From: Thermoproteota archaeon
GTDB taxonomy: Archaea; Asgardarchaeota; Jordiarchaeia; Jordiarchaeales; Freyrarchaeaceae
Direction of reading: 5' to 3'
NCBI GenBank assembly: GCA_029258835.1
Contig: JAPDJY010000039.1
Coordinates: 64,001 to 128,000 of the forward strand
DNA length: 64,000 nt
The notes under the pieces were generated by a model, which was not told where the DNA came from, made no database searches, and was given only the letters and a program-made list of their open reading frames with translations. Positions 2,002-64,000 of this stretch are shown here, piece after piece. The position numbers and the translations under genes were made by a program. Position 1 is the stretch's first letter. Every line of letters begins with the position of its first letter.

Positions 2002-3109
2002 GTGCAGCTTAAAGAGTATGTTCAAGACGTGTATACTTGTAATAGGACGAGGTGCGGCTACAGCCCCCTTTAATGAAGGGGGCGGCTAATGTATTGAAGA
2101 ATGCCCTTTCTTTAAGGAATTAAGGTTGGAACCATACTCAAGTAGGGGAAAAATGCTAATAGCAAGAGGCATACTTGAAGGTATCATCAAGCCAAGCGAG
2201 AGTCTGCTTAGAATAATTACTGCTTGCACTACATGTGGCTATTGCCTTTACAGGTGTGCTCTTCATAACATAGACGTAATTGTTTCGTTGAGGGCTGAGC
2301 TAGTCCGTGCAGGATACGTTGACCCCGCCCATAAAACGGCTGCTGAAAACATTCTTTCTTTTGGAAATCCCTATTCTAGGGGATTTAAGAAGGATCTTGC
2401 TCTTCCTAGGAAGGCGGAAACAATTTTTTTTGCTGGATGCAGTTACTTCCACCTAGTCCCTGAGAAGCTTAGAGTAATAGAGGAAATTCTGCTGAAGATG
2501 AGAAATGTAGGAAGCCTTGGTGTAAGTGAGCCATGCTGTGGGAACGTTATGCTTTCGACCGGCCAAATCGATGCTTTCACGAGTTACGGTGAAAGGGTTG
2601 TCAAAATGTTTAGAGAGGCAGGTGTTGAACGTATAATTACTGCGTGTCCGGGATGCTATGAGACGCTTTACCAAGAGTACCCGAAGTTTTTCGATTTTGA
2701 CGTTGAAGTCCAGCATATAACCCAGTTTTTAGCAGATGAAATAGAGAAAGGAAAAGTGAAAGTGAAACGTTTAGATGGAGTAGCTACTTTTCATGACCCA
2801 TGCCACCTTGCAAGGTACGCAGGGATAACCGAGGAGCCACGCTTAATTATCGAGGCTACTGGTATGGAAATTGCTGAAATGGAACATAATAGGATGAACA
2901 CTATGTGTTGTGGTGGAGGGGGAGGGGCGCCCCTCGCCCATCCTAGGATTACAGCTAAAATTGCAGAAAAGAGGGTTACAGAAGCTATTAATTCGGGAGC
3001 AGGAACTATAGTAACGGCGTGTCCATTATGCGAGTACATGTTAAGTAGAGGTATTAGACGGAGGAAAAGCACGCTTAAGGTACTAGATATAACGGAGTTG
3101 GTTAAATGA
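2002..3109 (+). CDS. Fe-S/CCG-domain oxidoreductase subunit (GlcF/HdrD-like); spliced join(2002..2061,2090..3109), 359 aa
   Basis: GTG start 4 nt after the glcD-like stop; removing 2062-2089 gives CNRTRCGYCIEECP in frame with CTTCGYCLYRC, CCG, ACPGC, HDPCHL, CCGGGGG and ACPLC. Confidence 0.88.
2062..2089 (+). other. BHB-type intron (28 nt) in the Fe-S oxidoreductase mRNA
   Basis: GGUGC-GGCU-AC|A-GCCCCCUU(UAAUG)AAGGGGGC-GGCU-AA|U-GUAUU: outer helix, 4-bp central helix, two 3-nt bulges, 8-bp intron stem; contains an in-frame TAA. Confidence 0.88.
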
Positions 3110-3128
3110 AAAAATTCCTGATGATTTT

Positions 3129-4052
3129 TTATCGGTAGTATGGGGCTCGTCTTTTTACAGCTTCAATGAAGAGTTTTTTTATTTCCTCTTCGGATGCTCC
3201 CTTCCGCATGGGAGTTAAAACGTCGACTAAATTGTCATTTCGCATGAGGCAAGGCTTAAGCTTTCCATCGCTTGTCACCCGTAGTCTAGTGCAGTTGGCG
3301 CAAAATTCACTATTATGGACGGGTTTGACAAGTTCAACTTCCCCGCCATCCTTTAAAAAGTATTTTTTTCTTTTTTGCATTTTTCTGATTACAACTTTTA
3401 CTGATAGTTCCTCAAGAAGTCTTTCGATGGAGGTAACATCAGCATGATATTTTTTAAGGAAAGAAGCGTTATCAGGAACAACAAGCTCTATGACTTGAAG
3501 GATGATGCCCTTTTTTCTTGAGAAATCTATTAGAGAAGGCAGTTCGGATTCGTTAACATTTTTTAGTAAAACCATATTAAGCTTAACAGGTTTTAGACCA
3601 GCTTTAAGCGCTGCGTCTATCCCGTCCAAAACGCGTCCAAAAAGCGCTTTCCCGGTGATTTTTGCATATTTTTCTTTTGAAAGAGTGTCTAAACTGATGT
3701 TAACTCTCTTCAATCCGGCTTTAGCTAGAGGCCGCGCCCATTCGGAGAGGAGAGTTCCGTTCGTGGTCATTGAGATATCACGTATTCCTTTTATTTTAGA
3801 GAGTAGCTTAACAACCTTCACTATTTCTTTGTAGAGAAGGGGTTCGCCACCAGTTAACTTTATTTTTTCTACGCCGAGGCTGGCAGCCACTTTAACAAGT
3901 AATTCGATCTCCTCAGCGCTCATTTCCACAGTTTTAGGTCCACTGCTGCAACCCTGCCCTTCATGATGACAGTAAAAACAGTTAAGGTTGCATTGCTGGG
4001 TAAGAGAAATTCTAAGGTCATTTACTGGGCGACCATATGGATCAATGAGCAT
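3129..4052 (-). CDS. moaA: GTP 3',8-cyclase (molybdenum cofactor biosynthesis)
   Basis: LRISLTQQCNLNCFYCHHEG radical-SAM motif, LTGGEPLL, C-terminal FCANCTRLRVTSDGKLKPCL. Confidence 0.95.
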   Translation of the reverse strand: MLIDPYGRPVNDLRISLTQQCNLNCFYCHHEGQGCSSGPKTVEMSAEEIELLVKVAASLGVEKIKLTGGEPLLYKEIVKVVKLLSKIKGIRDISMTTNGTLLSEWARPLAKAGLKRVNISLDTLSKEKYAKITGKALFGRVLDGIDAALKAGLKPVKLNMVLLKNVNESELPSLIDFSRKKGIILQVIELVVPDNASFLKKYHADVTSIERLLEELSVKVVIRKMQKRKKYFLKDGGEVELVKPVHNSEFCANCTRLRVTSDGKLKPCLMRNDNLVDVLTPMRKGASEEEIKKLFIEAVKRRAPYYR

Positions 4053-4273
4053 TTTAGCCCCTCACAAGAGGTAGGCGTAGAACTTATGGATGCAAAGGGC
4101 AAAATAAACATTTTCTTATTTTCTTAATGTTGAGCAGAAAAAGCCGGTACAATTTGTTTTGATCGATGTAAATATCTTGCAGGTATTACTTGCTCTTATT
4201 TAACACAATAAACCGTTTGAGATCAAAAGGGGAAGGAAAGGGTGGGTTGATTTTGTTGTTTGAGCGGGGGTTT

Positions 4274-4606
4274 ATGAAGAATGAAGCTGAGACCAGTAGG
4301 GAAAAAGAGGCGTTAAAGAGGTTTGTGATCGGAGATTATGCTAAAATAGCAATTTTAGAGCAGCTCGCCAAAGGGGAATGGTGTACTTTAGGAGAGCTAT
4401 GTAGGATTGCTAAAAATTATGATAAATACATTGGCCCTGTTCGCGTTTCTACAATATTACTATATATAGAGAAAATTGCAAAGAATGTATTGGAAAAAAG
4501 TGAGGGTGGAACTTTAATTAAATGGAGAGTGAAACCTGAAAAGGTTAAAGTTATAGAGGAGTGCGTCGAGGAGGTAAAGACGCGATCTTACCGGAAGACC
4601 ATTTGA
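4274..4606 (+). CDS. Hypothetical protein, possible winged-helix
   Basis: Purine-rich ORF, ATG after GGGGG; helix-turn-helix plus terminal beta pattern judged by eye. Confidence 0.5.
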   Translation: MKNEAETSREKEALKRFVIGDYAKIAILEQLAKGEWCTLGELCRIAKNYDKYIGPVRVSTILLYIEKIAKNVLEKSEGGTLIKWRVKPEKVKVIEECVEEVKTRSYRKTI

Positions 4607-4803
4607 AATGGTAGATAGATGATTAAGCGTGAAGCCATTTACTAAACATTGCATCATTCTCCAAGTAAAAAATAAAGCTATCTAAATGGTGGGCGACATT
4701 TAATATATGAAAAAATGATGAAGAAGTATTCTTCTGGGAGGACGTGTTGGAAATGGAAGTTTTTATTTAAAAACCGTATAGAAGAAAGGGCGGAAAATTG
4801 TTT

Positions 4804-5424: not shown

Positions 5425-5545
5425 CTTTCAATGCTGCCGTCACTTTTCTTGCTGTAAGGTTTCTTATGGCGAAACTATATAAATACTTTCACAATGAAAG
5501 TAAAGAAACATGGTCATTCTGGGGGGAAATCCTAGAGAAAATTAG

Positions 5546-5632
5546 TGGGCGGGCCAGGATTTGAACCTGGGACCTCCACGGCGTCAACTTCACCCTGATC
5601 GTGTGGCGTCATAACCGCTAGACTACCCGCCC
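5546..5632 (-). tRNA. tRNA-Val(GAC) with a 14-nt intron at 30/31 (5589..5602)
   Basis: Cloverleaf GGGCGGG...CCACG-UUGACGC-CGUGG...UUCAAAU...CCCGCCCA (73 nt) after removing ACGAUCAGGGUGAA; central helix CGCC/GGUG. Confidence 0.9.
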
Positions 5633-5642
5633 ACGATAATGA

Positions 5643-11859: not shown

Positions 11860-13026
11860 TTGAGCCACGCCTCTTCTATTTTTAAGGATGAAACTACCTT
11901 CTTTCACGAATATGTTCCTCCTACACTTCCTCACAGAGAAAAACAACTAGAGCGACTCATGAGATTCTTTAAGCCGCTCTTTACGGATAAATTTGTTAGC
12001 GTTAACATCGCAATAATTGGACAGGCAGGGGTTGGAAAAACCGCTGTAGCTAAGCTTTTCGGTAAACAGCTAATCGAGGAAGCGAAGAAGAGAAACGCTA
12101 AGATTTTATTTGAGTACATGTACTGTAGTGCCGCAAGGACATTATCAGCAGTGTTGAGGCAGGTAATATCTAAAAACTGGAGGAAAATTCCTATTACAGG
12201 GATAACCGGAAGCGAATTGATAGTTGAACTGAATGAGAGGCTTAATAAAGAAGATAAACGGTTGGTTTTAGTTCTTGATGAAGCAAAGTTGTTAGGTGGC
12301 GAGGAAATCCACGGACTTATAAGAAGTGCAGAGTTTTTTGGGTATGGAAAAGCTAGAATAAGTACAATAGTAATAAGCAGGCCTGAAGACTGGGTTGCTT
12401 ACCTGCAATCAGACCTCTCTGAAGACGTACATATAGTAATAGAGCTTCCAAGGTATTCGGAGGAAGAGCTAAGAGATATTTTAAGATATAGAGCGAAAAT
12501 AGGCTTTTATGATGGTGTTGTGAGTTCGGAAATATGCGACATGGTCGCGAGGATAGCAAGTGAAACAGGAAACGCGAGGCATGGCATAGAAATATTATAC
12601 CATGCAGGGCTCATAGCCGAAAAAAGCGATGAAAAAAGGATTACACCAGAGATGATACGTATAGCGAAAAACGAAGTTTACCCTGAAACGTCCCCTGAAA
12701 TTCTCAGGGGGCTTCACGCACATGAACTTTTAACGCTTTTAGCAGTTGCCATAACACTGAAGGAGGAATTAACAGCACCTATAGGAAGGGTATACGAAGA
12801 ATACAAGGTCATATGTGAAGAGTACGGAGCGAAACCACGCACGACAAGAAACTTCAAGAACTATCTTAGAGTTCTATCGGACATTCAAATAATTAACACA
12901 GTGGTCAAGAACTTAAAGAGGGGAAGGCGAACAATTGTAACCTTAACCGAAATACCGGCGTCGATACTTGAAGAGAGGGTTAGAAAGCTTCTCGAAGAAA
13001 AAAGGCCTGTAGAAATAAGGGATTAA
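11860..13026 (+). CDS. cdc6: Cdc6/Orc1-type replication initiator
   Basis: YVPPTLPHRE, Walker A GQAGVGKT, LVLDEA, GNARHGIEIL, C-terminal winged helix. Confidence 0.92.
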   Translation: MSHASSIFKDETTFFHEYVPPTLPHREKQLERLMRFFKPLFTDKFVSVNIAIIGQAGVGKTAVAKLFGKQLIEEAKKRNAKILFEYMYCSAARTLSAVLRQVISKNWRKIPITGITGSELIVELNERLNKEDKRLVLVLDEAKLLGGEEIHGLIRSAEFFGYGKARISTIVISRPEDWVAYLQSDLSEDVHIVIELPRYSEEELRDILRYRAKIGFYDGVVSSEICDMVARIASETGNARHGIEILYHAGLIAEKSDEKRITPEMIRIAKNEVYPETSPEILRGLHAHELLTLLAVAITLKEELTAPIGRVYEEYKVICEEYGAKPRTTRNFKNYLRVLSDIQIINTVVKNLKRGRRTIVTLTEIPASILEERVRKLLEEKRPVEIRD

Positions 13027-14962: not shown

Positions 14963-16426
14963 CTAGCCCTTCACTACTCCAATAGGGCGCAACTTGGCTA
15001 CCAGCGAGGCAATCCCAACCTTGTGGGAGACCTCGGCTACTACGTCTACATCTTTATATGCCTCAGGTGCTTCTTCGCTTACTACTACCATGCTGGCGGC
15101 TTGAACAAGAATTCCTGATTTTTGAAGGTCATCCTTAACCTTCTCTCCCCAAAACTTTTTCTTCGCCCCAGCTCTGCTAAGCCGTCTACCAGCACCATGA
15201 GCGGTCGAGCCAAAGCTCAGTTCCATAGACTCTTTCCTACCTCTCAACACATAGCTGGCAGTCCCCATGGTTCCAGGAATAAGAACAGGTTGACCTATAT
15301 CTCTGTATTTTTGAGGGACTGCAGGGTGTCCTGGAGGAAACGCCCTAGTGGCACCTTTCCTATGGACACAAACAGTTTTTTCTGTACCGTCTACACGGTG
15401 CCGTTCAAACTTAGCGATATTATGGGCCACATCATAGACAAGGTGAATTCCAAGATCCTCCGGGGATGAATTAAAGACCTTGCCAAAGGACTCACGTACC
15501 CAATGCATTATGCATTGCCTATTTGCCCACGCGAAATTAGCGGCAGAAGCCATTGCCGCTAGGTAGTCCTCACCTTCTCTACTTTTACCTGGAACTGCTG
15601 CCAGCTCTCTATCAGGAAGGGAGATGCCATATTTTCTTACAGCATGCTCCATAACTTTTAAGTAATCAGAACAAACTTGATGGCCAAGACCTCTAGATCC
15701 CGTATGGATCATAATTGTAACTTGCCCTTCAAACAGCCCTAAGCATTTCGCTGCTTCACCGTCATAAATACGCTCAACGTATTGTATTTCTAAGAAGTGA
15801 TTGCCACTACCTAAAGTGCCAAGTTGCGGTGCACCTCTACTTTTCGCTTTAGAGGAAACCTTGCCTGCATCTGCCCCTTTAAGACATCCTTCCTCCTCAC
15901 AATAAAACTTATCTTCATCCCAACCGAAGCCTTGATCAACTGCCCAGCTTACGCCGGATTCTAACACTTCATCCAGTTCAGAATGAGATATTCGAATTTT
16001 ACCTTCAGACCCTACTCCGCTAGGTACTTCCTTAAATAGGACGCTTAAAAGGCCTTTGAGTTTAGGAGTAACATCGTCTTTTAAAAGATCCGTTCTAAGA
16101 AGACGCACACCACAGTTAATATCGTATCCTACGCCGCCGGGAGACACTACGCCGCCCTCTTCGAAATCGATGGCGGCAACGCCCCCTATTGGAAAGCCAT
16201 ACCCTTGATGAGCATCAGGTAAAGCGATCGAATGCTTTTGGATTCCAGGGAGGCATGCAACGTTCATGGCTTGAATAAGTGTTTGGTCCTTTTTCATACC
16301 TTCTAGCAACATTTCATTTGCAAAAACTTTAGTAGGTACGCGCATACACTTCTTAGTACCTTTTGGTATCTCCCAAATGAAATTACTTACCTTCTTTAGA
16401 GGAATATTCGCGCTCAAGAACCTCAT
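14963..16426 (-). CDS. rtcB: RNA-splicing ligase RtcB
   Basis: LPDAHQGYGFPIGG, GYDINCG, GSGNHFLE, HTGSRG, HNIAK, HRKGAT, STAHGAGR, EEAPEAYKD. Confidence 0.97.
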   Translation of the reverse strand: MRFLSANIPLKKVSNFIWEIPKGTKKCMRVPTKVFANEMLLEGMKKDQTLIQAMNVACLPGIQKHSIALPDAHQGYGFPIGGVAAIDFEEGGVVSPGGVGYDINCGVRLLRTDLLKDDVTPKLKGLLSVLFKEVPSGVGSEGKIRISHSELDEVLESGVSWAVDQGFGWDEDKFYCEEEGCLKGADAGKVSSKAKSRGAPQLGTLGSGNHFLEIQYVERIYDGEAAKCLGLFEGQVTIMIHTGSRGLGHQVCSDYLKVMEHAVRKYGISLPDRELAAVPGKSREGEDYLAAMASAANFAWANRQCIMHWVRESFGKVFNSSPEDLGIHLVYDVAHNIAKFERHRVDGTEKTVCVHRKGATRAFPPGHPAVPQKYRDIGQPVLIPGTMGTASYVLRGRKESMELSFGSTAHGAGRRLSRAGAKKKFWGEKVKDDLQKSGILVQAASMVVVSEEAPEAYKDVDVVAEVSHKVGIASLVAKLRPIGVVKG

Positions 16427-16544: not shown

Positions 16545-16883
16545 TCAGTAAATCCTCCATGTGTGCTTACACACTGTACAGCGGAGAAACGTCGTTGAGC
16601 CCTCATCGGCTCTTCTGGTCTGAACTTGCCAATAATAAGCTGTATCGTTTCCGCATTTAGGGCACCTTGCCTTTACCGTTGGCATTACCCGGATCTCCTT
16701 AGTTTCATCTATAACTAGCGTTTTCTCTCTTGGTGAGTGGTTTATTTCTTTTTTCACAATAAATTTACTACGCTTTGTCCTATCTATTACTTCTTGATAG
16801 CCGCAGTTTTTACAAGTCAACTTAACTTGTCCTTCCTCTTTTAGGGGATGCAACAGTGTACCACACTTAGGACAGAAATTCAA
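16545..16883 (-). CDS. tfs: Transcription factor S
   Basis: MNFCPKCG plus C-terminal CPKCGN...QTRRADEGST.F.RC..C. Confidence 0.95.
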   Translation of the reverse strand: MNFCPKCGTLLHPLKEEGQVKLTCKNCGYQEVIDRTKRSKFIVKKEINHSPREKTLVIDETKEIRVMPTVKARCPKCGNDTAYYWQVQTRRADEGSTTFLRCTVCKHTWRIY

Positions 16884-17337
16884 GAAGCAGCCTCCTTTTA
16901 GCCTTGTTTTGTAGATCTTCAGAGGGATTGAATTTTAAGTTTTCCATCCTATCTTTAATGCAGTAAAGAATGGTTTTTAGTAGCGTTGAGAACGCCAATA
17001 TGGCATGTTCGAGATTCTTTTGGTGAGTACAGTTTGCACTAAGGAAGGTGGCTACGTGCTTGGCAGCTTCCTTTATTTCTATTACTCCTGTAAGCCAAGC
17101 ATATGCTATTAGGGCTTCTGCTGCGTCACTTAAACTATGAGTGTTTTGCCTTGATGGAAGATGAGAACGGAGACCTGACGATTTTAGTGCTGAAGAAAGA
17201 ACGAAACCGGGTACCTTTGTAGTTTTAACTTTTCCAGTTGCCATCAACAATGCCAGACTGTAAATTAAATTTGCTACCCCATCTCCTACTTTTGCAAGTT
17301 GCTTGTTTGTAAGTATGTCCCTAAGAGTGCTCGCCGT
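16867..17337 (-). CDS. Archaeal RNase III-like domain protein; apparent ACG start at 17337
   Basis: Frame extends upstream of 17250 through LAKVGDGVANLIYSLA and later LSDAAEALIAYAWL; conserved position between rpoL and tfs. Confidence 0.75.
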   Translation of the reverse strand, partial: TASTLRDILTNKQLAKVGDGVANLIYSLALLMATGKVKTTKVPGFVLSSALKSSGLRSHLPSRQNTHSLSDAAEALIAYAWLTGVIEIKEAAKHVATFLSANCTHQKNLEHAILAFSTLLKTILYCIKDRMENLKFNPSEDLQNKAKRRLLLEFLS

Positions 17338-17353
17338 TGTCTTCCTCCCCCCA

Positions 17354-17647
17354 TCAAGACTTTCTGAAATCTTCTACAGCTTTAGAGAAATGTTCTTTAA
17401 ATTCATTAAGCAAAGATTTGAGGCGAACCACTGTATCTGTCATTACCTCTTTGGGAGAAACGTTGCCATTCGTTGAAATGTAGAGATGTGGCTCTGAAAG
17501 AAGAGGGTGCTCAATTTTATATCCCGCAAATACTACGTCCTTATTTTTTAAAAGAGCTTTTTTTAGAAGGTTGCAGAGGGTGTGATCCTCCCCTTTTATT
17601 TCTAATTCTAAATGATTTTCATCTTGCTTTAATATTTTAACGTTCAT
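17354..17647 (-). CDS. rpoL: RNA polymerase subunit Rpo11 (L)
   Basis: EIKGEDHTLCNLL, FAGYKIEHPL. Confidence 0.95.
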   Translation of the reverse strand: MNVKILKQDENHLELEIKGEDHTLCNLLKKALLKNKDVVFAGYKIEHPLLSEPHLYISTNGNVSPKEVMTDTVVRLKSLLNEFKEHFSKAVEDFRKS

Positions 17648-17658
17648 TTTTAGTCCTC

Positions 17659-18234
17659 CTAAATTTTTGTTTTTCCGTAATCTACTGAGATCTTCCGTTT
17701 TTCTTCGTTTCCACAATTATGGCAAATAAGAGATTTTTCATTTTTTGGAATCAACATTGTGCCGCATTTAGAGCAGAAAGCGTGTACCACGCCGAACTTT
17801 TTGCCGATCGTTGACAGTTGAATAAGGTCTCCTCTCCTATCTATCACTTTCGCTTTAACTATATCCCCTGTTTTAAAAGCGTCTGTAGGTTTAACTACGA
17901 ACTCGTTACTTATTTGGGAAACATGTATTACACCTGAACAGGGTGACGAAAGAAAGCGGCCTCCAATTCTTGCCACACTAACTATGCTTAAAGCCTTACC
18001 AGTCTTAACGATCATCCCTAAGGCAACATCGCCCTTTTTAGGAAAAGGAGGGGCTTCAACTGGTACAACTCTTACCCGCCTCTCCATTTTATCAATTAAA
18101 ACCATTCCTGCATTTGCAGCATAAACCTCTCCCTTTTCTTCATATGTCCCCTCATTAGGGGTGAACTCTTCTATGACTCCCAACCAGTCACCTGGTAAAA
18201 CAAAGCTCCCAGTTTTAGGCTTTGGTTTGACCAT
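17659..18234 (-). CDS. csl4: Exosome RNA-binding subunit Csl4
   Basis: VLPGDWLG..EEF, S1 domain, GVVHAFCSKCG...CHNCG.EEKRKIS. Confidence 0.93.
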   Translation of the reverse strand: MVKPKPKTGSFVLPGDWLGVIEEFTPNEGTYEEKGEVYAANAGMVLIDKMERRVRVVPVEAPPFPKKGDVALGMIVKTGKALSIVSVARIGGRFLSSPCSGVIHVSQISNEFVVKPTDAFKTGDIVKAKVIDRRGDLIQLSTIGKKFGVVHAFCSKCGTMLIPKNEKSLICHNCGNEEKRKISVDYGKTKI

Positions 18235-18269
18235 TCTTAACCACCTCTTTTTTACACTGTTTTTCTCTT

Positions 18270-18926
18270 TCAAGAAGATTCTGTCTGTGAACCTATTTTT
18301 AGTATTCTGTAAACGTCTACATCTACAATGTGTACTTTTTTCGTATGAAATTCAAACATGAAGGGTATAGGTAACTTAACAGTAATAATTTGGTCGATAC
18401 GACCACCATTTTCTTCTATGAAATCTTTGATAAACCTTCTGACTTTAAAGTTTGCCTTGTGAATAGAGTAGATCACTCTAGCTACTTCAAGTGCTTTCTT
18501 TAGAAAGAACCTGTCACTAAAACGTTTCTGAACTCCGAAGGGGGGATTTTGAATTACAGTGTCAGCATAACCCTTTAAATTTTTCAAATCCATTGAGATC
18601 CATTCAACCCTGTCTTCAACACCAGCCCTTTCAGCGTTAAGCTTTGCTATTTTTAACACCGTTGGGTCTATGTCTATGCCGACGACCCGTTTTGCACCAA
18701 GAATGGCGGCACCTATTGCAAGCTTACCATTTCCACAACCTAAATCGTAAACGACTTTTCCTTCAATATCATTAAACACGTATGCAGCCATAAAAATAAG
18801 GGTAGCAGCAACCCTGTTAGGAGTAGAGTACTGTTCTAACTCGACTTTCGGGCAAGGATTTTCTTCAAGATTTTCAAAGATCAACTCAAGGTTTTTTCTC
18901 TTTACTTTCATTTTGAGTTCCATCAC
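18270..18926 (-). CDS. METTL5-family rRNA adenine methyltransferase
   Basis: LEQYSTP, DLGCGNG, QNPPFG, FHTKK. Confidence 0.92.
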   Translation of the reverse strand: MMELKMKVKRKNLELIFENLEENPCPKVELEQYSTPNRVAATLIFMAAYVFNDIEGKVVYDLGCGNGKLAIGAAILGAKRVVGIDIDPTVLKIAKLNAERAGVEDRVEWISMDLKNLKGYADTVIQNPPFGVQKRFSDRFFLKKALEVARVIYSIHKANFKVRRFIKDFIEENGGRIDQIITVKLPIPFMFEFHTKKVHIVDVDVYRILKIGSQTESS

Positions 18927-20091: not shown

Positions 20092-21351
20092 ATGGTTGAA
20101 ATGACCGGCACTATTAGGAAAGTTAATGCACAGAAAATTCTTGATTCTAGAGGGAACGCTACAATTGAAGTGCGAGTATACACAGAAGACGTTGTAGCAA
20201 GTGCCTGCGCTCCATCTGGAGCAAGCGTCGGGCGCTTTGAAGTACGCGCTTTCCCGGAAGGGGGCGTAGATGCCTCGATTGAAATGGTGAATAAGATTTC
20301 AAGTAAACTGAAGGGTTTGAACGTGGAAGAGCAGAACGTTGTTGACTCGGTTATACACGAATTTGATAGTACGAAACAATTCGAAAAGTTAGGGGGAAAC
20401 GCGGCTATAGCGACCTCTATAGCGGTGGCAAAAGCTGCAGCACTAGAAAAAAACGTCCGGCTCTGCGAACATATAGCCGATGGACGGCTAAGGTTGCCTT
20501 TTCCTCTCAGTAACATCATAGGAGGAGGGGTTCATACGAAGGGAGATTCTATAGACTTTCAAGAGTTCTTAGTAGTGCCTCTTGGCGCTAAGAAGTTTAG
20601 AGACGCGGCTGTAGCAAACGTGATGGTGCATAAAGAAGTTGCCCGAATCTTGACTTCTCAGAGGCCCCACTACGTGTTTGGAAGAAATGATGAGGGAGCA
20701 TGGGCGGCCCCATTAACAATTAAAGAAGCTCTCGAAGTATTAAGCAATGCAGCCCAAAAAGTAGAGGGAGAATTGGGAATAGAGGTGAAAATAGGCGTTG
20801 ATGCAGCAGCTTCGGAACTTTGGATCGAAGATGAAAAGGTATATGTTTATAGGAAGGAAAAATGTAAGAAGTCGACCAGCCAGCAGTTAGACTACGTTTT
20901 GTCACTTATCGAAGAATACGACATATTTTATTTTGAAGACCCATTTGGCGAAGAAGACTTTGAAGCATTTGCAAAATTGAATAAAAACGTAAGTGGAAGA
21001 TGCCTTGTTACAGGAGACGACTTAACGGTGACTAATAAAGAGAGATTAAAAACAGCCTTAGAAAGAGGCTCAGTTAGTAGCATTATAGTCAAACCGAACC
21101 AGGTTGGGACGCTCACTGACGTTAAGGAAACGGTAACTCTGGCACTGTCAAATAACGTAGTTCCGGTCGCTTCCCACAGGTCAGGAGAAACATGCGACTC
21201 TGCCTTAGCACATATAGCAGTAGGATTGAAATGCCCAATAATAAAAATCGGGATCATGGGTAGTGAACGAATGGCTAAAATAAACGAACTAATAAGACTG
21301 GAGGACGAGATGGGATTAAGGATGGCTAAGCCACCGTTCTCGGATAGTTAA
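20092..21351 (+). CDS. eno: Enolase
   Basis: ILDSRGN, APSGAS, FQEF, EDPF, GDDLTVTN, KPNQVG, SHRSGET. Confidence 0.95.
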   Translation: MVEMTGTIRKVNAQKILDSRGNATIEVRVYTEDVVASACAPSGASVGRFEVRAFPEGGVDASIEMVNKISSKLKGLNVEEQNVVDSVIHEFDSTKQFEKLGGNAAIATSIAVAKAAALEKNVRLCEHIADGRLRLPFPLSNIIGGGVHTKGDSIDFQEFLVVPLGAKKFRDAAVANVMVHKEVARILTSQRPHYVFGRNDEGAWAAPLTIKEALEVLSNAAQKVEGELGIEVKIGVDAAASELWIEDEKVYVYRKEKCKKSTSQQLDYVLSLIEEYDIFYFEDPFGEEDFEAFAKLNKNVSGRCLVTGDDLTVTNKERLKTALERGSVSSIIVKPNQVGTLTDVKETVTLALSNNVVPVASHRSGETCDSALAHIAVGLKCPIIKIGIMGSERMAKINELIRLEDEMGLRMAKPPFSDS

Positions 21352-23182: not shown

Positions 23183-25607
23183 ATGGCCTTGTCAAGAGAC
23201 GAGAGGTTTGTCTTATGGTTTGAAGAGATCAGAAAAGACGATGTACCGATAGTAGGTGGAAAATGCGCGAATCTAGGTGAGTTAACAGCTGAAGTTAAAG
23301 TCCCAGTTCCACCAGGATTCGCTGTGACCACTCATGCATATAAGCAGTTCATAGAAACCACGAAAATAAAGGATAAGATTTTCAAGAAACTTGAAGGTTT
23401 AGACGTAAAAGATATGAAAATGCTTGAAAACGCATCGGCAGAAATAAGAAAGTTAATTGAATCAACCCCTGTACCCGAAGAAATACAGTCTGCCATCTTA
23501 AGTGCATACGATGAACTCTCTAAACGGGCGGGGAAAAATCCCTTTGTAGCCGTCCGCTCTAGCGCCTCGGCAGAGGACAGGTTTTCCAGCCCCTCAGCTG
23601 CCGGGCGCCAGTTTCGCTGGACAACAGGATACATTCTTAAACGTTACTAGAGACGAGCTGGTAAGTAGTGTTAGAAGATGCTGGAGTAGCCTTTTTACGC
23701 CAAGGGCAATAGCATATAGGGAAGAGAAGGGTTTTTCACATGAAGAAGTATCCATAGGCGTAGCTATCCAAGAGATGGTTGACGCTAAAGCAGCAGGGGT
23801 AATGTTTACTATACATCCAGTTACAGGTGAAAGAAATAAAATTCTTATTGAAGCCAATTGGGGGCTAGGAGAAGCCGTAGTAAGTGGCGCCGTAACGCCA
23901 GATACCTATGTCGTAGATAAAGAAACATTTGAGATCATCGACAAACATATTGTAACTAAAAAAGTCGAGTATGTAAGGGACCCAAAAACCGGGAAGACAG
24001 TTCACGCAGAAGTCCCCCCGGAAAGACAGAATATTCCTGCTTTAACAGACGAGGAAATAAAGGCGCTTGCAAAATATGCACTTCAAATAGAACAACATTA
24101 TAGAACACCACAGGATATAGAGTGGGCAGTTGATAAAGATGGGAGAATATTCATACTTCAAGCAAGACCTGAGACGGTCCATTCTGCAGGGGGAATTCAA
24201 GCGCAAGTATTAGAGGCTGCTGAGGAAAGAGAAGTGCTAGTAAGAGGGCTGCCAGTATCCCCAGGCCTAGGAGCAGGAAAAGTTAAAGTTATCTTAGATG
24301 CTAAGGACATAGACAAAGTTAAGGAAGGAGACATTTTAGTTACAAAAATGACCACTCCTGATTGGGTTCCAGCCATGAAAAAGGCAGCGGCAATAGTGAC
24401 TGATGAAGGGGGCTACACGTGCCATGCAGCAATAGTTTCACGTGAACTAGGTGTACCATGCATTGTTGGTACTGGAAATGCAACAGAAGTTCTTGCGAAT
24501 GTGGAGGAAGTAACCGTTGACGGAGGAAAGGGACTAGTCTACCGTGGAATAATTAAAGAAGCAGCTGAAGAGGTGGTGCCTACAGCTGCGGTAACTTATG
24601 CGATAGTGCCGACAGCAACTAAGATATATGTTAACCTTTCAATTCCAGAGATCGCTGATAAAGTTGCAAGGGAAACAAGAGCAGATGGTGTAGGGCTTCT
24701 AAGAGCAGAACACATGATGGTTACCATAGGAAAGCATCCACGCAAACTCATTGAGGAGGGTGGAGACCAGCTTATGGTGGATTCCTTTGCGGAGGGCATC
24801 AGGAAAGTTGCCGAAGCGTTTTATCCTGGTCCTGTCGTATATAGGTTCCTAGACTTTAAGCCTGACGAATTCCTAGCCCTAGAGGGAGGAGAAAAGTATG
24901 AGTTAGAGGCAGGGCATGTAGGACCAAATCCAATGATAGGCTACAGGGGACAATACAGATACGTTAAGGAGCCAGACATATTCAGGCTAGAGTGTAAAGC
25001 AATAAGAAAGGTTAGAGATGAATTTGGCCTTAAAAATGTTTGGGTAATGTTGCCTTTCGTTAGAGACATAGAGATCTTCCGGAAAGTGAAGGAGATAATG
25101 AAGCAGGAGGGGCTGGATCCCGAGAAAGATCCTGACTTTAAACTCTGGATAATGGTGGAGGTCCCAAGTAGCGTCCTGTTAATTGACAAGTTCTGTGAAG
25201 AAGGGATAAACGGAGTGTCTTTTGGCACAAACGACCTAACAATGCTGATACTTGGCGTAGACCGTAACGATGCTTCGGTACAGGAGATATACGATGAACG
25301 AAACCTAGCAGTCCTCAGGGCAATAGCTTACACAATAAAAATATGCAAAAAGTACGGGGTGACAACGTCTATTTGTGGGCAAGCACCCAGCGTTTACCCG
25401 GACTACTTAGAATTCCTAGTTAGGATGGGAGCAACATCAATAAGCGTAAACCCGGACGCTGTACAACGTACACGTGAAATGGTTGCAAGAATAGAGCAGA
25501 AGATACTGATGGAGAAAGCATTAGGAGTTAAAACAAGAATCAAAGTTGGAAAGAATTTCATAGAAGAAGTCGAGTTCTGGAAAAAAGTAGATGACAATTT
25601 AGAATAA
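23183..25607 (+). CDS. ppsA: Phosphoenolpyruvate synthase; spliced join(23183..23578,23598..25607), 801 aa
   Basis: VGGKCANLGEL; after splicing [52 protein letters not shown]. Confidence 0.95.
23579..23597 (+). other. BHB-type intron (19 nt) in ppsA mRNA
   Basis: CGGCA-GAGG-AC|A-GGUU(UUCC)AGCC-CCUC-AG|C-UGCCG: perfect Watson-Crick outer and central helices. Confidence 0.9.
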
Positions 25608-36904: not shown

Positions 36905-37458
36905 TCAACCTAACTTCCGCTTAATGATCTCTTTAACCAAAAGGTTAAATGCAGCTTCCACGTTTTCACCGTTCTTCGCAGAGGTTTCAAAAAAAGAAGC
37001 GTTTATTTCTTTCGCGTATCTTTTGCCGTCCTCTGTCCGCACCTCCCTAAGGTTAGAGAGGTCAACCTTATTTCCAATAACCACCGTGACAGGTTCCTCC
37101 TTAACATTCTTTAACAATTCCTTACGCCAATTTTCAAGGTTGTCAAAGGTAGAGCGTCGTGTTATATCGTAAACTAGCATCGCCCCGACTGCACCTTGAT
37201 AAAACGTACTACGTACGTGTTTGAAGTGTGGCTGCCCACCTAAGTCCCAAAGCACCAACTTAGCAGTAAGATCGCCTAAGTTAATAATTTTTGAGAAGAT
37301 ATCTATACCTTTAACCCGCTGAGTAGCACGAGCTACCAGCGTATAGTCTTCTTGTAGTCGGCCATAAACCTACCGCTAACATACTTTGATATTAAACTAG
37401 TTTTTCCCACGGCACCATCACCTGCAAGGATCACCTTATAAACAAGTTCCCGTGACAA
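36905..37458 (-). CDS. Rab/Ras-like small GTPase; spliced join(37458..37343,37310..36905), 173 aa
   Basis: TTG start after AAGGGGG; YKVILAGDGAVGKTSL, YKKTI/GIDIF restored by splicing, WDLGGQ, GNKVD, ETSAK. Confidence 0.9.
37311..37342 (-). other. BHB/BHL-type intron (32 nt) in the small GTPase mRNA
   Basis: GACU-AU|A-CGCUG GUAGC(UCGU)GCUAC U CAGCG-GGUU-AA|A; 10-bp intron stem, in-frame TAG, weak outer helix. Confidence 0.85.
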
Positions 37459-37545: not shown

Positions 37546-38885
37546 GTGAACTACCACCCGTTAAAACGGGTGGCTTCCAACATTCGGGGCAGGCTTCTCG
37601 CCTATCCCCTCATCTGCTGGTTCGGGGGTTCACAGCTCTCCTCATCCCATGCCTCTCGTTAAGGCATGGGCTAGGTTAATTGCAGAATTTAAATCCCGAT
37701 TATAGATTAAACTACACTTAGGACATCTAAACTCTCTATCATTAACTTTGGGCAACATGCCCACACTATGACACCCCTTTGAGGTATTCTTTGGATTACT
37801 ATACACTACAGAAATTCCCTCTAAATTAGCTTTGTATTCGATGTATTGCTGTAATTTTCGAAAGCTCCAAGCATGCAACCTTCTGTTTAGCTTAGCAGAA
37901 CTATTCATGTTCTCTCTAATTCCATCAAGCTTCTCCATTGCTATTACTGGCTTTTCGAACTGGCTTAGCGTAAGCAACGATTTAGTTGGTTATTATATGC
38001 AAATGTTAGTTTACAATTTTCTTCTCCTTATGACCAAACCGCTTAACCAAAGTCCAGTCTTTTCTTTCTCTGCAAGTTTCTTCTGATGTGTGCGTATTTT
38101 CCTCTTATTTCTCTTATTCTTTGCTCCGTTCCAAAACTGACCCTTTGTAGGTTTTGGATTTTGCTTTGGTATAGCTACTGCAACAGCTACATTCCACTCC
38201 CCTAAATCTACTCCTATAACAGTTTCTGGCTCATCGATTAGTTCAACGTCTTTCTTAAGCGTGAAGTGTGCATACCACTCCCCGTTTCTCTTCACCATCT
38301 CAACCGTGCAAAATTTCCACTCCCCTTGCAAAGCTTCTTCTATGAATTTTTGCTGTCTCTTCCCAAAGACTATCGGGAGTGTTATCCTCTCCTTGCAATT
38401 AAGGGTTAGAGTAGCCAGCAAGGAGTTAGTTCGTTGTTGTTTTGGCAAAAGAGTAACACCTTTTGTCAAATCTAATTGAAAGTCTCTTCAGCTTGGGTCG
38501 TTCTATTTTGACTTGCCTTTTTTCTTTTTTCATTGAAACTTTTTAGGATTTCCACTGCTTTATCCCTTGCTGTCTGGATTAAGGCGGTGTTCAGGTTGAA
38601 TAGCTGTTTAGCTTTCTCATAGCCATTCTTGTGCAGAGAAGCCTTTGATGTAAAATTGAAGCCTTAGATACCAGTTCACAAGTGCATAATATTCTTCCAA
38701 ACACTTATTCAGAACTAAAACTTTCTTCTTGTTTGGTTTGAAAACCGTTCCTACCACAGTTAGCTGAACTTCTTTCCTCACGGGAACGTCCCTAAAGATT
38801 TTTTAACTCTCTAAGTATTTAATATTAACCTATCCACCTCCCCTAATTCATCCACCTTCACAGATAGGCGGTCTTCTTGCGACAA
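37546..38885 (-). mobile_element. tnpB: Decayed IS200/IS605-family element with multiply frameshifted tnpB (about 37642..38781)
   Basis: GVDLG, MEKL..IR, IEYKANLEG, CPKC, NRDLNSAINL fragments; right-end hairpin GAAGCCACCCGTTTTAACGGGTGGTAGTTCAC; degenerate left-end hairpin near 38845-38880. Confidence 0.85.
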
Positions 38886-53235: not shown

Positions 53236-53238
53236 AAA

Positions 53239-59655: not shown

Positions 59656-59708
59656 CTCATCCTTCTTTAATAAAAAGAGGCGTTTTAAAAGCTATGGTAG
59701 AACATTCT

Positions 59709-61343
59709 TTATTCCGCAGCATCCTTAAGTCGCTGTACAAGCCAATCTTTGTCTAGTAATGTGATAAACGACGCAAGCCGAGGGCCATACCTTCTGCCAA
59801 GAAGGACTAAGTAAATGGTTTCAAAAAATAAACGTGAACCTAAACCGCTTTCCTCCTTAGCAAGCTTATAAAGCTCCTGCTCCAGCTCGCTTTCGGTGAA
59901 CGACTTGGAGCTGAGACGTTGAGCTAAAAGCTTGAGAGCGTGCTTCTGCCCGTCTGTCAAGTTCTTCTTAATATCTTCGGGAAGCGTAGTAAGAACACGG
60001 ATTTTCACCCTTTCAGGGGCATACTTTTTGAGCCAATTTTCCGCCCTTCTAAGCCGCCCTTCGATCCTCCTCAATTCAAAATCATTTAGATCTCTAACAA
60101 GCAAACCCGTGTTTTTAAGGCGTTCAATAGCCGTCTGGAGAAGGAAGTCCTTCGGTAGCACCTGGACTAAAGTTACAGCATGACTATATTTAAGCTGAAA
60201 CGGCATGATCTCTGGGATCTCGCCCATCTGAGCTAGTTCGTAGCTTCTCACTATTTCAAAACGCTCTTTGTCCTGCTCTACGTCTTCTACTCCATAAAAA
60301 ACGCGTTCTGCATGATCATAAATGTCAGAGTAGTCAGGTATCTTAAGAGGGTCAATTATTATGCGTTTCATCGGTTTATTTTTCAAGCAGAGATACCTAA
60401 AAACTTCCGGCTCAGCCACAGACACCCAATCCTCAGGGGTAATCCCTTTAAAGTCACTGGAACCCATGTCGCCTAACTCTTTTCCGCCGTAAGCTAAGGC
60501 AACCCATTCGTAGGGAAGCCCATAGGGAGGCTTACCATTAAAGAATTCTCGCATGAGTTCAACGCAGCTATCCCTAGAGCCGCCAGGAGTTGCATGGTCT
60601 TTCCCGTAGGGTTCAAACTTAACATTCAAGGCAACCCATAAGGCAGCCCATTCCACCCTCCAGTTAAGCTTTCCCAACTCTATCCTTGACCAGCCGTGAT
60701 CTCCGCAAGCGCCACACACGTATTCGACTCTATACGAATTAAGGTCAACGTTCAAGATGCGATGTGAACCAATAACCTTACACTTGTTACAGAGGGGTTC
60801 AAATGGAACCCATCCTTCAGGGTGGGGTTTCCTCCCGCGATACTTGTTAATAATTCTTCTGACATCATCTGACCGCAGAAACACTTCCTTAACGATTGCT
60901 CTCATGGATTCTCTTCTATAAAGCTCCGTCGTAGTGACAACGTGGACGTCTAATGCAAAATCATCGAGATAAGCGCCAAACGGCTCCCAGAAGTGGGTAA
61001 CCCAATCATCATGACATCCAAAGGGATCAGGTATATCTATTAAGCGGTGACCAACCAGCGACTTAGCAAACTCTTTATCGGGAAAAATTTCAACTTGGGG
61101 AGGTTTGCCCTTCCATTGATCTTGCGTGTAAAGGACCAGTACATGTTCAGCGTTCACTCCCTTCTTTAGCAGCTCTTCCTTAACGGTATTAGTAAGAATT
61201 ATTTCGCCGCGGAGGCGGCCTATGTGCTGGAGGCCGGATACTGAAAGGCCACAGCTGCAAACATAATTTTCTACTTTACCCCAGTAATTGAGTAGTTCTT
61301 CAACAGCATCATCAACCCAATGATGGAAGACCTTCTTAGTCAA
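59709..61343 (-). CDS. lysS: Lysyl-tRNA synthetase, class I
   Basis: SGLQHIG, GKLNWRVEW, FEPYGKDH, MGSS, GPRLA. Confidence 0.95.
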   Translation of the reverse strand: MTKKVFHHWVDDAVEELLNYWGKVENYVCSCGLSVSGLQHIGRLRGEIILTNTVKEELLKKGVNAEHVLVLYTQDQWKGKPPQVEIFPDKEFAKSLVGHRLIDIPDPFGCHDDWVTHFWEPFGAYLDDFALDVHVVTTTELYRRESMRAIVKEVFLRSDDVRRIINKYRGRKPHPEGWVPFEPLCNKCKVIGSHRILNVDLNSYRVEYVCGACGDHGWSRIELGKLNWRVEWAALWVALNVKFEPYGKDHATPGGSRDSCVELMREFFNGKPPYGLPYEWVALAYGGKELGDMGSSDFKGITPEDWVSVAEPEVFRYLCLKNKPMKRIIIDPLKIPDYSDIYDHAERVFYGVEDVEQDKERFEIVRSYELAQMGEIPEIMPFQLKYSHAVTLVQVLPKDFLLQTAIERLKNTGLLVRDLNDFELRRIEGRLRRAENWLKKYAPERVKIRVLTTLPEDIKKNLTDGQKHALKLLAQRLSSKSFTESELEQELYKLAKEESGLGSRLFFETIYLVLLGRRYGPRLASFITLLDKDWLVQRLKDAAE

Positions 61344-61608
61344 CTAAGCTCTCCTCCCAGAGAATTTAAAGGGAACTTTAAGAGGAAGGCAAGACTCGCC
61401 GATTAACTGAGGGATTTGCTAAGCCATAAAAGAAAAGAAACTTAAATAAATGTATATCTCATTTTACCCCAAATTAACTTCATGAGGCATAAAAATCGGC
61501 CTTCAGCAAGCTTTTTCTAAGACATAACGGGAGCTTATTCAACGTACATACTCCTTTAATTTAATTTAGATGGCTTAAGCGCTCCTGTGAATGGCCGTAT
61601 TTATCATA

Positions 61609-62787
61609 TCACCGAATATAGGGAGCACCTTCTAAGGAGTGAGCAACCCTTAACTCATGTAACTTCTCTTCAATAATCGAAAGAAGCGAGGATACGTCTT
61701 TTTTCTTAGCAGAGGTAAACGTCCATTTGAAATGGTTTAGTAAAGGAGACAGGAGGAAAGTTAACTGTAGCTTTCCATTGCTATCAAGCAAATCAGCTTT
61801 GTTCAGCGCAACTACCATCCGAGATTCGCTCACACCTATCTCTTTAAGAATGGCAAGCGACTCCTTAAGTTTAAGGTAAACGATGTCTGAGGGGTTGTCC
61901 AATCCGACAACTAGAACAACTAGATCCGCGGTTTTTAAATCCAGCAGGTTTAATTTAAACGAATCGATGAGCATAGGGTCCAAGTCAAGTACAAAACCAA
62001 TTGTATCCACAAAGAAGATCTTCTGACTTGACAAGCCGTTAAGTTGATATTTGCTTGAAAGTGTTGTGAAGGGAAAATCACATACAGGCCTATTTTCACC
62101 ACAAAGTACGTTAAAGAGAGAGGACTTACCTGCATTGTACATTCCACTCAGCACAACGGTAGGAATACCAAGCTTCGAACGCCTCTTAATCTGCTGCAAT
62201 TTCTCCCATGCAAGTCGGTCTATCTCTTGCCTAATGCGTTTCTCTCTCTTTTTGATCGCGTTAAGTTCACTATGAAATGCATACTCCCCCATAGATCGGA
62301 AGAATGGGTGTTCACGCCTGTACTTAAGTGAAGCTTGAAGTTTAAGAAACGGAGCAAGTTTCCTAAGCCGTGCATATTCAATTTGTAACTTAGAAACTTT
62401 ATCCCCTGCGGATGCATCAAAAATTAGAAGGGTAAGCTCGTACCTATCAAGCACGTCACATTCTAAGACATTCGAAATTGCCAATTTCTGGCGGCTAGAA
62501 AGAGAATTGTAAAAAATTACATGACCAGCCCGGTGGAGCTTCACAAGTTTCTTAAGCTCCTCAACCTTGCCTCTACCAATTAAAAAATTAGATTTAGGCT
62601 TAAGCCTGGTCTGAACAATGCGATCGACTATTTCAAAACCAGCAGCTACAGCCAGCCTTTCAAGCTCATCCAAATAGACCTTAAACAGGAAGTGGTCATG
62701 TGGATTGGTCTTCAACATGCAAAGGATGGCACGCTGACTTCTACCATGCGTAATCCCTTCACACCAAGGCATAGCCACACCATCCAT
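61609..62787 (-). CDS. hflX: HflX GTPase (divergent)
   Basis: IGRGKVEEL, DR..L.L.IF, KLQIEYARL, GMYNAGKSSL, DTIGF, NKAD. Confidence 0.85.
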   Translation of the reverse strand: MDGVAMPWCEGITHGRSQRAILCMLKTNPHDHFLFKVYLDELERLAVAAGFEIVDRIVQTRLKPKSNFLIGRGKVEELKKLVKLHRAGHVIFYNSLSSRQKLAISNVLECDVLDRYELTLLIFDASAGDKVSKLQIEYARLRKLAPFLKLQASLKYRREHPFFRSMGEYAFHSELNAIKKREKRIRQEIDRLAWEKLQQIKRRSKLGIPTVVLSGMYNAGKSSLFNVLCGENRPVCDFPFTTLSSKYQLNGLSSQKIFFVDTIGFVLDLDPMLIDSFKLNLLDLKTADLVVLVVGLDNPSDIVYLKLKESLAILKEIGVSESRMVVALNKADLLDSNGKLQLTFLLSPLLNHFKWTFTSAKKKDVSSLLSIIEEKLHELRVAHSLEGAPYIR

Positions 62788-63044
62788 AAATACACAGAAA
62801 AATTAAGAAAATAAAAACATGCCGAGTCATAAGCCCCGCAAAGGTAAAAAACGATAACAAGCATCTAAAAATGAACAACCTTAACATTTTGTTAAAAAAG
62901 GAAAATAGCCAACATAGGCCAACCCTCACGAAAACGAAGGGCCACCACCTAAAACTTAACAAGTAAACTTTAAAGGTAGAACCGCCTTATTTAAAAACAA
63001 GAATGCTAACGATCATTTGTAAAGAACATCAAGAGGCAAACTAA

Positions 63045-63458
63045 ATGAACAAGGAAGTTTTAGAAGAGTTCAAAGAAACGCTTGATGAATTAAAAGAATA
63101 CTCGAAGATGGGGATACCGATAATAGTCGAAGGGCAAAAGGACGAAGCAAGCCTTAGGGAGATAGGGATCACCGGGCCAATAATAACGATTTCAGGGATG
63201 AAATTATTGGAAATAGCAGAAATGCTTGAAAAAGAGGAAATCATAGTCCTCACAGACTTCGACAGAAGAGGAGATAAAATGGCATTAACAATCCTCTCCT
63301 ACAGGGTAGGAGACAGTACACTCACAAAGTACTTCAGAAGTAAAATAAGAAAGTTAAAAGCACACATAACACCATGCGTGGAGGGGTTCGCTAAAACATA
63401 CCTCAAAGCATGTAGAATGGAAAAAACATACAAGAACCCGTTTAGAAGGTTAAATTAG
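63045..63458 (+). CDS. Small TOPRIM-domain protein
   Basis: IIVEGQKD..SL, VLTDFDRRG; usual upstream neighbour of archaeal dnaG. Confidence 0.88.
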   Translation: MNKEVLEEFKETLDELKEYSKMGIPIIVEGQKDEASLREIGITGPIITISGMKLLEIAEMLEKEEIIVLTDFDRRGDKMALTILSYRVGDSTLTKYFRSKIRKLKAHITPCVEGFAKTYLKACRMEKTYKNPFRRLN

Positions 63459-63571
63459 GAACAAAAAATAGGAGGCTTTCATCTAAAAGAGAGTTAAGAG
63501 CACTAGTTAGTTACCGTCCACTCAATCATTTCCCAATAGGGTTATGTGTTAAATTGGGAGGTGAAGTTCAC

Positions 63572-64000
63572 ATGGCTAATCGAAATGAAGTTGGAACAAT
63601 AAAGTACATTATAAAGGCGAAGATAGAAGTAAACGGGGTGGTCGAGAAGCCTGACGTTATAGGCGCGATTTTTGGTCAAGTACGTTGAGCTCACCGCTCA
63701 CGTAGACCAATTAGAGGGGCTTCTCGGCTCTGAATTAGACCTTCGAGAGTTGCAACGTACGGGTAGGATAGGTAGGATAAGAGCGAACATTGAGACGCAC
63801 GGTGGGAAATCTGTAGGTGAGATTATTATTCCATCAAGTTTGGATAAGGTTGAAACAGCCATCCTTGCTGCGGCGCTTGAAACTATTGATAGAATTGGGC
63901 CGTGTAGTGCGAAGGTAAGTTTTGAGGCAATTGAAGACGTGAGGGAGAGTAAACGCAAGAAGATTATTGAGAGAGCGGTAGAAATTCTTAGGAGGTGGCC
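63572..64000 (+). CDS. dnaG: Archaeal DnaG (primase-like, exosome-associated), partial; spliced join(63572..63679,63711..>64000)
   Basis: [47 protein letters not shown]...[25 protein letters not shown]. Confidence 0.93.
63680..63710 (+). other. BHB-type intron (31 nt) in dnaG mRNA
   Basis: GGUC-AA|G-UACG U UGAGC(UCACC)GCUCA CGUA-GACC-AA|U; perfect central helix, 9-bp intron stem, in-frame TGA. Confidence 0.9.

Follow-up and report, generated by a model that had tools for sequence, protein, structure and literature searches.

Predicted bulge-helix-bulge introns in protein-coding genes of a Jordarchaeia (Asgard) genome

A pre-mRNA intron in the cbf5 gene of Crenarchaeota was reportedly described by Watanabe in 2002. 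This intron, of the bulge-helix-bulge (BHB) type, is known from Aeropyrum, Sulfolobales and Desulfurococcales (Yokobori 2009, PMC2738675), and a paper of 2020 gave it as the only BHB intron reported in coding mRNA (PMC7714728). An initial annotation of the DNA studied here had taken cbf5 as the established archaeal mRNA example. Another BHB intron in an archaeal mRNA, that of HVO_1309 in Haloferax volcanii, is situated in the 5' untranslated region (5' UTR) and is cleaved by the splicing endonuclease EndA in vivo and in vitro (PMC7714728). Here, we analyse a 64,000-nucleotide (nt) stretch of an archaeal genome (contig JAPDJY010000039.1, positions 64,001-128,000; hereafter the window), in which four protein-coding genes are each interrupted by one insert of 19-32 nt that very probably represents a BHB intron. 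The genes encode an Fe-S oxidoreductase, phosphoenolpyruvate synthase (ppsA), a Ras/Rab-like small GTPase and the archaeal DnaG primase-like protein (dnaG). Positions are those of the window unless prefixed with G000, which denotes this genome.

The lineage in question is known for its interrupted tRNA genes. Jordarchaeia and Freyarchaeia are the classes with the heaviest tRNA-intron load (PMC11291895; bioRxiv 10.64898/2026.10.13.758758): interrupted genes account for 92-95% of all tRNA genes in Freya and Atabeya genomes (PMC11291895), and Jordi- and Freyr-archaeaceae have about two intervening sequences per tRNA gene (bioRxiv 10.64898/2026.10.13.758758). Neither of these two papers on tRNA introns mentions introns in protein genes, and no paper on BHB introns in Asgard mRNAs was found in the searchable literature.

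The nearest relatives of the ppsA gene belong to metagenome-assembled genomes (MAGs) of Candidatus Jordarchaeales (86% amino acid identity), followed by Candidatus Freyarchaeota (72-76%) and then by Odin- and Baldr-type Asgard. The genome is a member of Jordarchaeia, an Asgard class; the initial annotation was right in calling the host 'Asgard-like'. The 91 contigs of the assembly add up to 2.72 Mb; completeness is 94.7% and estimated contamination 6%. The G+C content is 41.8% in the window and 48.8% in the whole MAG; the contig in question (C1) has 43% throughout, and the distribution of G+C among contigs is unimodal (45-55%). For comparison, we used the other genomes of the Jord family (G001-G004), genomes of the Freya type (G006-G010) and a distant Asgard genome (G011, family f3).

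All four frame-breaking inserts were found exactly where they had been predicted, at 2062-2089 (+ strand, 28 nt) in the Fe-S oxidoreductase gene, 23579-23597 (+, 19 nt) in ppsA, 37311-37342 (-, 32 nt) in the GTPase gene and 63680-63710 (+, 31 nt) in dnaG; none of these lengths is divisible by three. The predicted geometry likewise holds at every site. Four bases at the end of exon 1, just ahead of the cut region, form a 4-bp central helix with four bases close to the 3' end of the insert; a 3-nt bulge follows on the 3' side of either strand, all four inserts contain an inner hairpin of 4-9 bp, and the cut that restores the frame falls in all cases after the second base of the bulge. With bulges in parentheses and a slash at the cut, the sites read GGCU(AC/A)-9-bp hairpin-GGCU(AA/U) in the Fe-S gene, GAGG(AC/A)-hairpin-CCUC(AG/C) in ppsA, GACU(AU/A)-hairpin-GGUU(AA/A) in the GTPase gene and GGUC(AA/G)-hairpin-GACC(AA/U) in dnaG. 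The final bases of exon 1 in the Fe-S gene are GGCU, which supplies the 5' strand of the central helix, and AC, the first two of the three bases in bulge 1. An outer helix between the exons comprises 7 bp in ppsA and 5 bp in the Fe-S gene, three of the latter being G.U pairs. Group I and group II self-splicing introns have a ribozyme core of hundreds of nucleotides, for which these inserts of 19-32 nt are too short, and an Rfam search of the window returned only a tRNA. The introns are higher in G+C than the surrounding sequence. Structure, cut rule, in-frame restoration and covarying conservation (see below) are observed at the four sites, and we assign a probability of about 0.88 to the reading that the inserts are genuine BHB introns in protein genes, very probably removed by EndA and the RNA ligase RtcB.

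Once the inserts are removed in silico, each of the four genes has a single open frame, and the conserved motifs reappear as had been predicted, with intron-less orthologues of ppsA, the Fe-S gene and dnaG matching the junctions. The predicted junction peptides are CGY/CIEECP for the Fe-S oxidoreductase, SAED/LPGASFAGQ for ppsA, KT(I)GIDIF for the GTPase and IFGQ/LEGLLG for dnaG; the ppsA junction peptide SAEDLPGASFAGQ is a candidate proteomic marker. The breaks fall within compact motifs: the Fe-S cluster motif CxxCxxxCP, AED/LPGASFAGQ of ppsA and the switch region of the GTPase.

The Fe-S oxidoreductase (CCG-domain, GlcF/TfrB/HdrD-like) is encoded by exon 1 at 2002-2061 (+; 20 codons, GTG start) and exon 2 at 2090-3109 (+; 339 codons and stop), the latter with Pfam CCG and Fer4 domains and with NCBIfam TfrB/GlcF-like matches under the curated cut-offs; directly 5' of it is a gene for a GlcD-like flavin adenine dinucleotide (FAD) oxidase (537-1997). 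Exon 1 of ppsA (23183-23578, +) covers positions 2-113 of the PPDK_N profile, and exon 2 (23598-25607, +; 669 codons and stop) continues without a gap at positions 114-315, followed by the PEP-utilizers domains; exon 2 also matches the NCBIfam phosphoenolpyruvate synthase equivalog over its cut-off, the match beginning only at position 132 of 798. The GTPase gene starts with TTG in exon 1 (37343-37458, -; 38 codons and 2 nt), which contains the P-loop GDGAVGKT and spans Ras profile positions 1-31, and proceeds in exon 2 (36905-37310, -; 1 nt, 134 codons and stop) from position 33 to 161, with the split codon in between. For dnaG, the 36 codons of exon 1 (63572-63679, +) match residues 3-41 of the Odin-type orthologue; exon 2 (63711-64000, +) continues beyond the window to about G000:C1:128775 and matches the NCBIfam DnaG equivalog with 460 bits, over the cut-off, from profile position 28 of 419.

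A comparison with orthologues in sister genomes, which the initial annotation had proposed, revealed introns in the same codons with covarying helices; the relatives' introns share codon and fold with those of the window and differ in length and sequence. The sample for covariation comprises 2-10 genomes per intron, all of them related to each other. The ppsA open frame breaks off at one and the same position in eight related genomes, three from the family of G000 and five from its sister family, and is full-length in more distant Asgard. The same-codon insert was read in G001, G002 and G006-G010, and in a further related MAG (locus L033). It measures 18-20 nt in Jord-family genomes and 29 nt in most of those from the Freya family, and its interior is 32-46% identical to that of this genome, compared with 88-100% for the exon flanks. 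The intronic CCUC, partner of the exonic GAGG, is invariant in all five ppsA sequences compared, and the inner helices differ in sequence. The more distant ppsA orthologues (Odin/Baldr range) are uninterrupted and read AEDLPGA, exactly as in the predicted junction. One of the carriers, G006, is a single-contig genome, and its locus matches the Freyarchaeota chromosome CP147778.1; a complete Freyarchaeia genome has been manually curated and validated with long reads (PMC11291895). In G004, the corresponding stretch (L004) is a run of N, and this genome was left unscored for the ppsA intron.

The other three introns have a narrower distribution. The Fe-S gene carries an intron of 27-30 nt at the same site in all five genomes of the Jord family (G000-G004), with 92% of the base-pair cells paired and both sides altered in four of the pairs; in a control with the partners shifted by 1-3 columns, pairing fell to 36-61%. 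The Freya-type orthologues are intron-less and read CGFCRNECP. Introns of 31-34 nt occupy the dnaG site in G001 and G002, with one pair of the central helix changed in compensatory fashion from U-A to C-G, and the Freya and more distant dnaG orthologues are intron-less, reading IFGQTEGLLG. In G001, the GTPase orthologue is interrupted at this site by an intron of 30 nt, whose inner helix shows compensatory changes; the orthologues of the Freya type appear uninterrupted, judged by the open frame of 176-197 amino acids that extends upstream beyond the intron site and not by the sequence of the site. Since the ppsA intron is found in both Jord and Freya genomes and the other three in Jord genomes only, one intron predates the split: the ppsA intron was gained before the Jord and Freya families separated. 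The introns in the Fe-S, GTPase and dnaG genes are confined to the Jord family, through either later gain or loss in the Freya family.

Intact paralogues and relaxed selection had been named as findings that would speak against introns; for ppsA, neither was encountered. Both ppsA and dnaG are single-copy in the genome. Between this genome and four relatives, the synonymous sites of ppsA are saturated (dS), and non-synonymous divergence (dN) is 0.23-0.32 for exon 1 and 0.09-0.17 for exon 2. Saturated dS together with low dN in both exons indicates that both were retained as coding sequence, which points to strong purifying selection on each of them.

We have also searched for BHB introns in the whole genome. 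The homologues of the 1.42-Mb genome of G011, which is in the range of Odin-type MAGs, were located in G000, and BHB-shaped excisions of up to 60 nt were enumerated near the ends of homology segments, both in the true geometry and in a mirror-image control. An excision was counted if the spliced peptide aligned to the reference protein across the junction, with a BLOSUM score over 10 residues on each side of at least 16 (loose) or at least 20 (strict). The loose threshold yielded 21 junction-spanning excisions in the true geometry versus 2 in the mirror geometry, and the strict one 14 versus 0, well beyond what chance would give. Three of the four window introns are among the strict cases; that of the Fe-S gene was missed because its exon 1 is too short for detection. 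Together with one case found by segment pairing (G000:C6:47345-47373), the strict cases amount to at least 15 introns. Pairing of homology segments alone was rejected as a test, as it left the two geometries unseparated (27 junctions, true 22 versus mirror 17).

Twelve homology-supported BHB introns in protein genes are located outside the window: G000:C1:136638-136664, C4:24354-24376, C6:47345-47373, C8:8772-8796, C8:63575-63604, C10:10540-10579, C19:4619-4673, C36:2539-2555, C51:12697-12716 and, on contig C27, 13051-13079, 26080-26109 and 28832-28874. Within 16 kb of contig C27, the genes for EF-1alpha (intron of 43 nt, inside GHVDHG/KST), aIF2-gamma (30 nt) and ribosomal protein L44e (29 nt) are interrupted; the introns of hypD and of a radical S-adenosylmethionine (radical-SAM) lipid synthase have 17 and 55 nt, respectively. 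Both bulges nearly always begin with A (AA/A, AC/A, AA/U).

With about 1,215 loci having a homologue in the reference, detectable introns amount to about 1.2% of the testable genes before correction for misses, and we estimate that dozens of BHB introns exist genome-wide, in roughly 1.5-3% of genes. The extrapolation made in the initial annotation from 4 of 65 genes was thus right in expecting many introns (at least 15, with dozens plausible) and too high in its rate of about 6%: the window makes up 2.4% of the genome and contributes 3 of the 14 strict detections, and is thus richer in introns than the genome on average. The four introns belong to a wider spread of BHB introns across the Jordarchaeia lineage.

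The EF-1alpha gene was followed further. The first 150 residues of its exon 2, compared with a protein collection, returned no near-identical spliced fragment and nothing above 82% identity, which is uninformative. Two short 'partial' EF-1alpha open reading frames (ORFs) were considered as intron cases and rejected: L247 has a plain 1-nt frameshift, and L246 is a truncated gene adjoining unrelated genes on a 1.42-Mb Bathyarchaeota chromosome (CP070647.1), where a 160-amino acid 'partial' fragment is followed by a luciferase-like gene. On contig C27 itself, the gene at G000:C27:20814-21426 (-) matches ORF o2240 of G011 in two adjacent frames, with the segments meeting at 21050/21052 and no insert between them; the cause here is a shift of 1-2 nt, by sequencing error or programmed frameshifting, rather than an intron. 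Two metatranscriptome runs (X19 and X22) contain small shares of the window region.

The enzymes that the initial annotation had invoked, EndA and RtcB, are encoded in this genome. There are two EndA paralogues, one matching the catalytic half of the two-domain endonuclease profile and the other its structural half; the former keeps the Tyr, His and Lys positions, as read by eye from the sequence, and the latter is devoid of the His. The EndA alpha gene is the ORF that includes G000:C1:12233-12481, and the beta gene the one that includes G000:C6:39796-40056. The pair fits the (alpha-beta)2 type. Asgard EndA is reported to be of this type and to have an L1 loop linked to a broad substrate range (PMC5829648); the presence of L1 in our case is taken from that paper. 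The gene for RtcB (14963-16426, -; 487 amino acids), the expected joiner of exons, is located within the window, intact and uninterrupted. A conventional substrate of this machinery is also present: the tRNA gene at 5546-5632 (-) carries an intervening sequence within or beside the anticodon arm, with 23 nt versus 9 expected by the covariance model. ARAGORN identifies this gene as tRNA-Asp without intron mode; with intron mode, the call is tRNA-Val(GAC) with a non-canonical intron of 14 nt. Across the genome, the intron mode recovered only 25 tRNA genes, of which 20 have introns, suggesting that many interrupted tRNA genes escape this program.

Several observations weigh against BHB introns at these sites. 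The central helices of the Fe-S and GTPase genes each hold two G.U pairs. The sites in the GTPase and dnaG genes have no outer helix between the exons, i.e., they are of the relaxed form, and such sites need an EndA of broad specificity. The computed minimum-energy fold is the BHB fold at only one of the four sites, and the BHB-constrained folds are 0.8-4.0 kcal/mol above the computed minimum free energy. Among relatives, the ppsA central helix of G006 likely has an A.C mismatch (read by eye), and that of dnaG has one G.A mismatch in G001 and G002. Motif-only scans for BHB shapes that merge open frames, run with and without codon-usage scores and A-first bulges, gave no genome-wide excess, true and mirror counts being about equal. 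Of the genome-wide scan proposed in the initial annotation, the homology-backed version was productive and the search by motif alone was not; the BHB motif is too short for introns to be predicted from it without homology, so that scans of the latter kind inform neither way. Finally, archaeal transcription and translation are usually coupled, and how ribosomes avoid unspliced messages is a question that such introns raise.

Three other explanations were weighed against the splicing of BHB introns. The most prosaic is that the genes are pseudogenes, or that the inserts stem from errors in assembly or binning and are never removed. Automatic annotation would indeed label these genes as frameshifted, the MAG has an estimated contamination of 6%, and one split gene elsewhere, an unrelated EF-1alpha, owes its break to a plain 1-nt frameshift, which shows that split genes need not all contain introns. 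However, inserts of differing length and sequence occupy the same codons in independent MAGs and in the single-contig G006, a specific RNA fold is kept by compensatory changes, both exons of ppsA are open and conserved as protein despite saturated synonymous sites, the ppsA and dnaG genes are the sole copies in the genome, and the mirror-geometry control produced only 0-2 matches; we consider this explanation extremely improbable. The ribosome could also skip the insert on an uncut mRNA, by translational bypassing as in phage T4 gene 60 or by programmed frameshifting. The hairpin in every insert would suit this mechanism, and dnaG has CAA both as the codon ahead of the insert and as the insert's final codon, resembling a take-off/landing pair, but no matched codons of this kind are found in ppsA, the Fe-S gene or the GTPase gene. 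What the relatives conserve is the 4-bp helix, the two 3-nt bulges and the exact cut register and not codon identity; this architecture is a known substrate of EndA, which is encoded together with RtcB, and inserts elsewhere in the genome reach 43-55 nt. Bypassing thus seems very unlikely.

It is also conceivable that EndA cuts these messages without the exons being rejoined, either for regulation or decay or with the two halves translated separately and assembling afterwards. EndA does process BHB sites outside introns, in rRNA precursors, and that in the Haloferax 5' UTR (PMC7714728). Against this stand the position of the breaks inside single compact motifs, the lack of a start codon at the break in the downstream exons, and a cut register that restores the frame exactly in the four genes and at least 11 further ones, which would be needless without ligation; cleavage alone is accordingly given a slim chance. 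The reading that we prefer is removal of BHB introns by EndA and RtcB, where cleavage and ligation on these particular mRNAs, and their timing relative to translation, are what we infer.

In this process, the transcript would form the 4-bp exon-intron helix with its two 3-nt bulges, with the remaining insert folded as a hairpin. A heterotetrameric (alpha-beta)2 EndA would cleave both bulges behind their second base, and RtcB would join the resulting 2',3'-cyclic phosphate and 5'-OH ends to produce an in-frame mRNA; the excised intron would probably be circularised by RtcB as well. Messages that stay unspliced would give truncated products. A broader proposal, which we put forward tentatively and hold to be possible rather than likely, is that tRNA-type introns have colonised dozens of protein genes in Jordarchaeia and perhaps in other Asgard, core translation genes included, and that splicing takes place before the ribosome reads the message. 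If this were true, transcription and translation would have to be uncoupled kinetically or spatially, or splicing would act as a global checkpoint of expression. The lineage would then offer a living prokaryotic case of the conflict between introns and translation that has been invoked for the origin of the nucleus, and intron gain would still be under way, with three of the four window introns confined to one family.

Apart from the four introns, no further ones were found inside the 64-kb window. A candidate at 12978-12994 proved false, the whole gene being covered by a single homology segment. A run of small minus-strand ORFs at 16545-18273, considered as a split gene, consists of separate genes (for TFS, an RNase III-like protein, RpoL and Csl4), and a minus-strand 'gene' over the dnaG intron is an antisense shadow of dnaG from the reference genome. 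Adjoining the GTPase gene, there are a TnpB/Cas12f-like ORF with a TNB domain and a second ORF preceding it, at 37642-37977 and 38011-38469 (-). The gap between them comprises about 36 AT-rich bases with stops, at the place where TnpB usually reads ...KIV..AYAK..., and no convincing BHB was seen between these ORFs (37642-38469). The gap reflects either a decayed TnpB of the IS200/IS605 type or an insert of another kind.

The mechanism proposed here is a known one; its scale, gene set and lineage are absent from the searchable literature. Many unrelated genes, some of them essential, are interrupted in a close prokaryotic relative of eukaryotes that has the most intron-rich tRNA genes. Gene callers report such genes as pseudogenes or truncated ORFs and thereby distort the metabolic reconstruction of Asgard MAGs, the interrupted functions including ppsA, hydrogenase maturation, lipid synthesis and translation factors. 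The system also opens to experiment the question of how ribosomes are kept off unspliced messages in a cell that has no nucleus, and gains that can be dated make it possible to ask whether reverse splicing or another route spreads BHB introns.

Among the systems described, the cbf5 intron is similar to those of the window in being a short BHB intron within a coding sequence, in its lineage-specific presence and absence and in the mis-annotation of its genes as frameshifted; its excision is by the tRNA splicing endonuclease, with a ligase taking part. It differs in being restricted to one gene family of one phylum, whereas four unrelated genes are affected here in 64 kb, and at least 15 in the genome, of an Asgard lineage; its splicing was demonstrated experimentally and ours is predicted from sequence. 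With the pre-tRNA introns of Freyarchaeia, Jordarchaeia and Atabeyarchaeia, the introns share the motif, the cut positions, the presumed enzymes and the lineage, but the host RNA is an mRNA, in which the exon helix is constrained by codons and removal has to be exact to the base for the frame to be kept. The HVO_1309 intron is likewise a BHB in an mRNA, and one that EndA cuts, but is situated in an untranslated leader, where no reading frame is interrupted. Outside archaea, the HAC1/XBP1 mRNAs undergo a protein-catalysed splicing that is independent of the spliceosome and changes the frame, with ligation by the RtcB family in animals. Unconventional HAC1/XBP1 splicing with RtcB ligation is described in a further source (PMC8718801). 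Protein catalysis without a spliceosome and sealing by an RtcB-family ligase, the latter proposed here, are common to both cases. In HAC1/XBP1, however, Ire1 acts on two stem-loops of a single regulated target, and in Jordarchaeia EndA would act on BHB motifs of many apparently constitutive ones; the likeness is an analogy and not a homology of the cleavage step.

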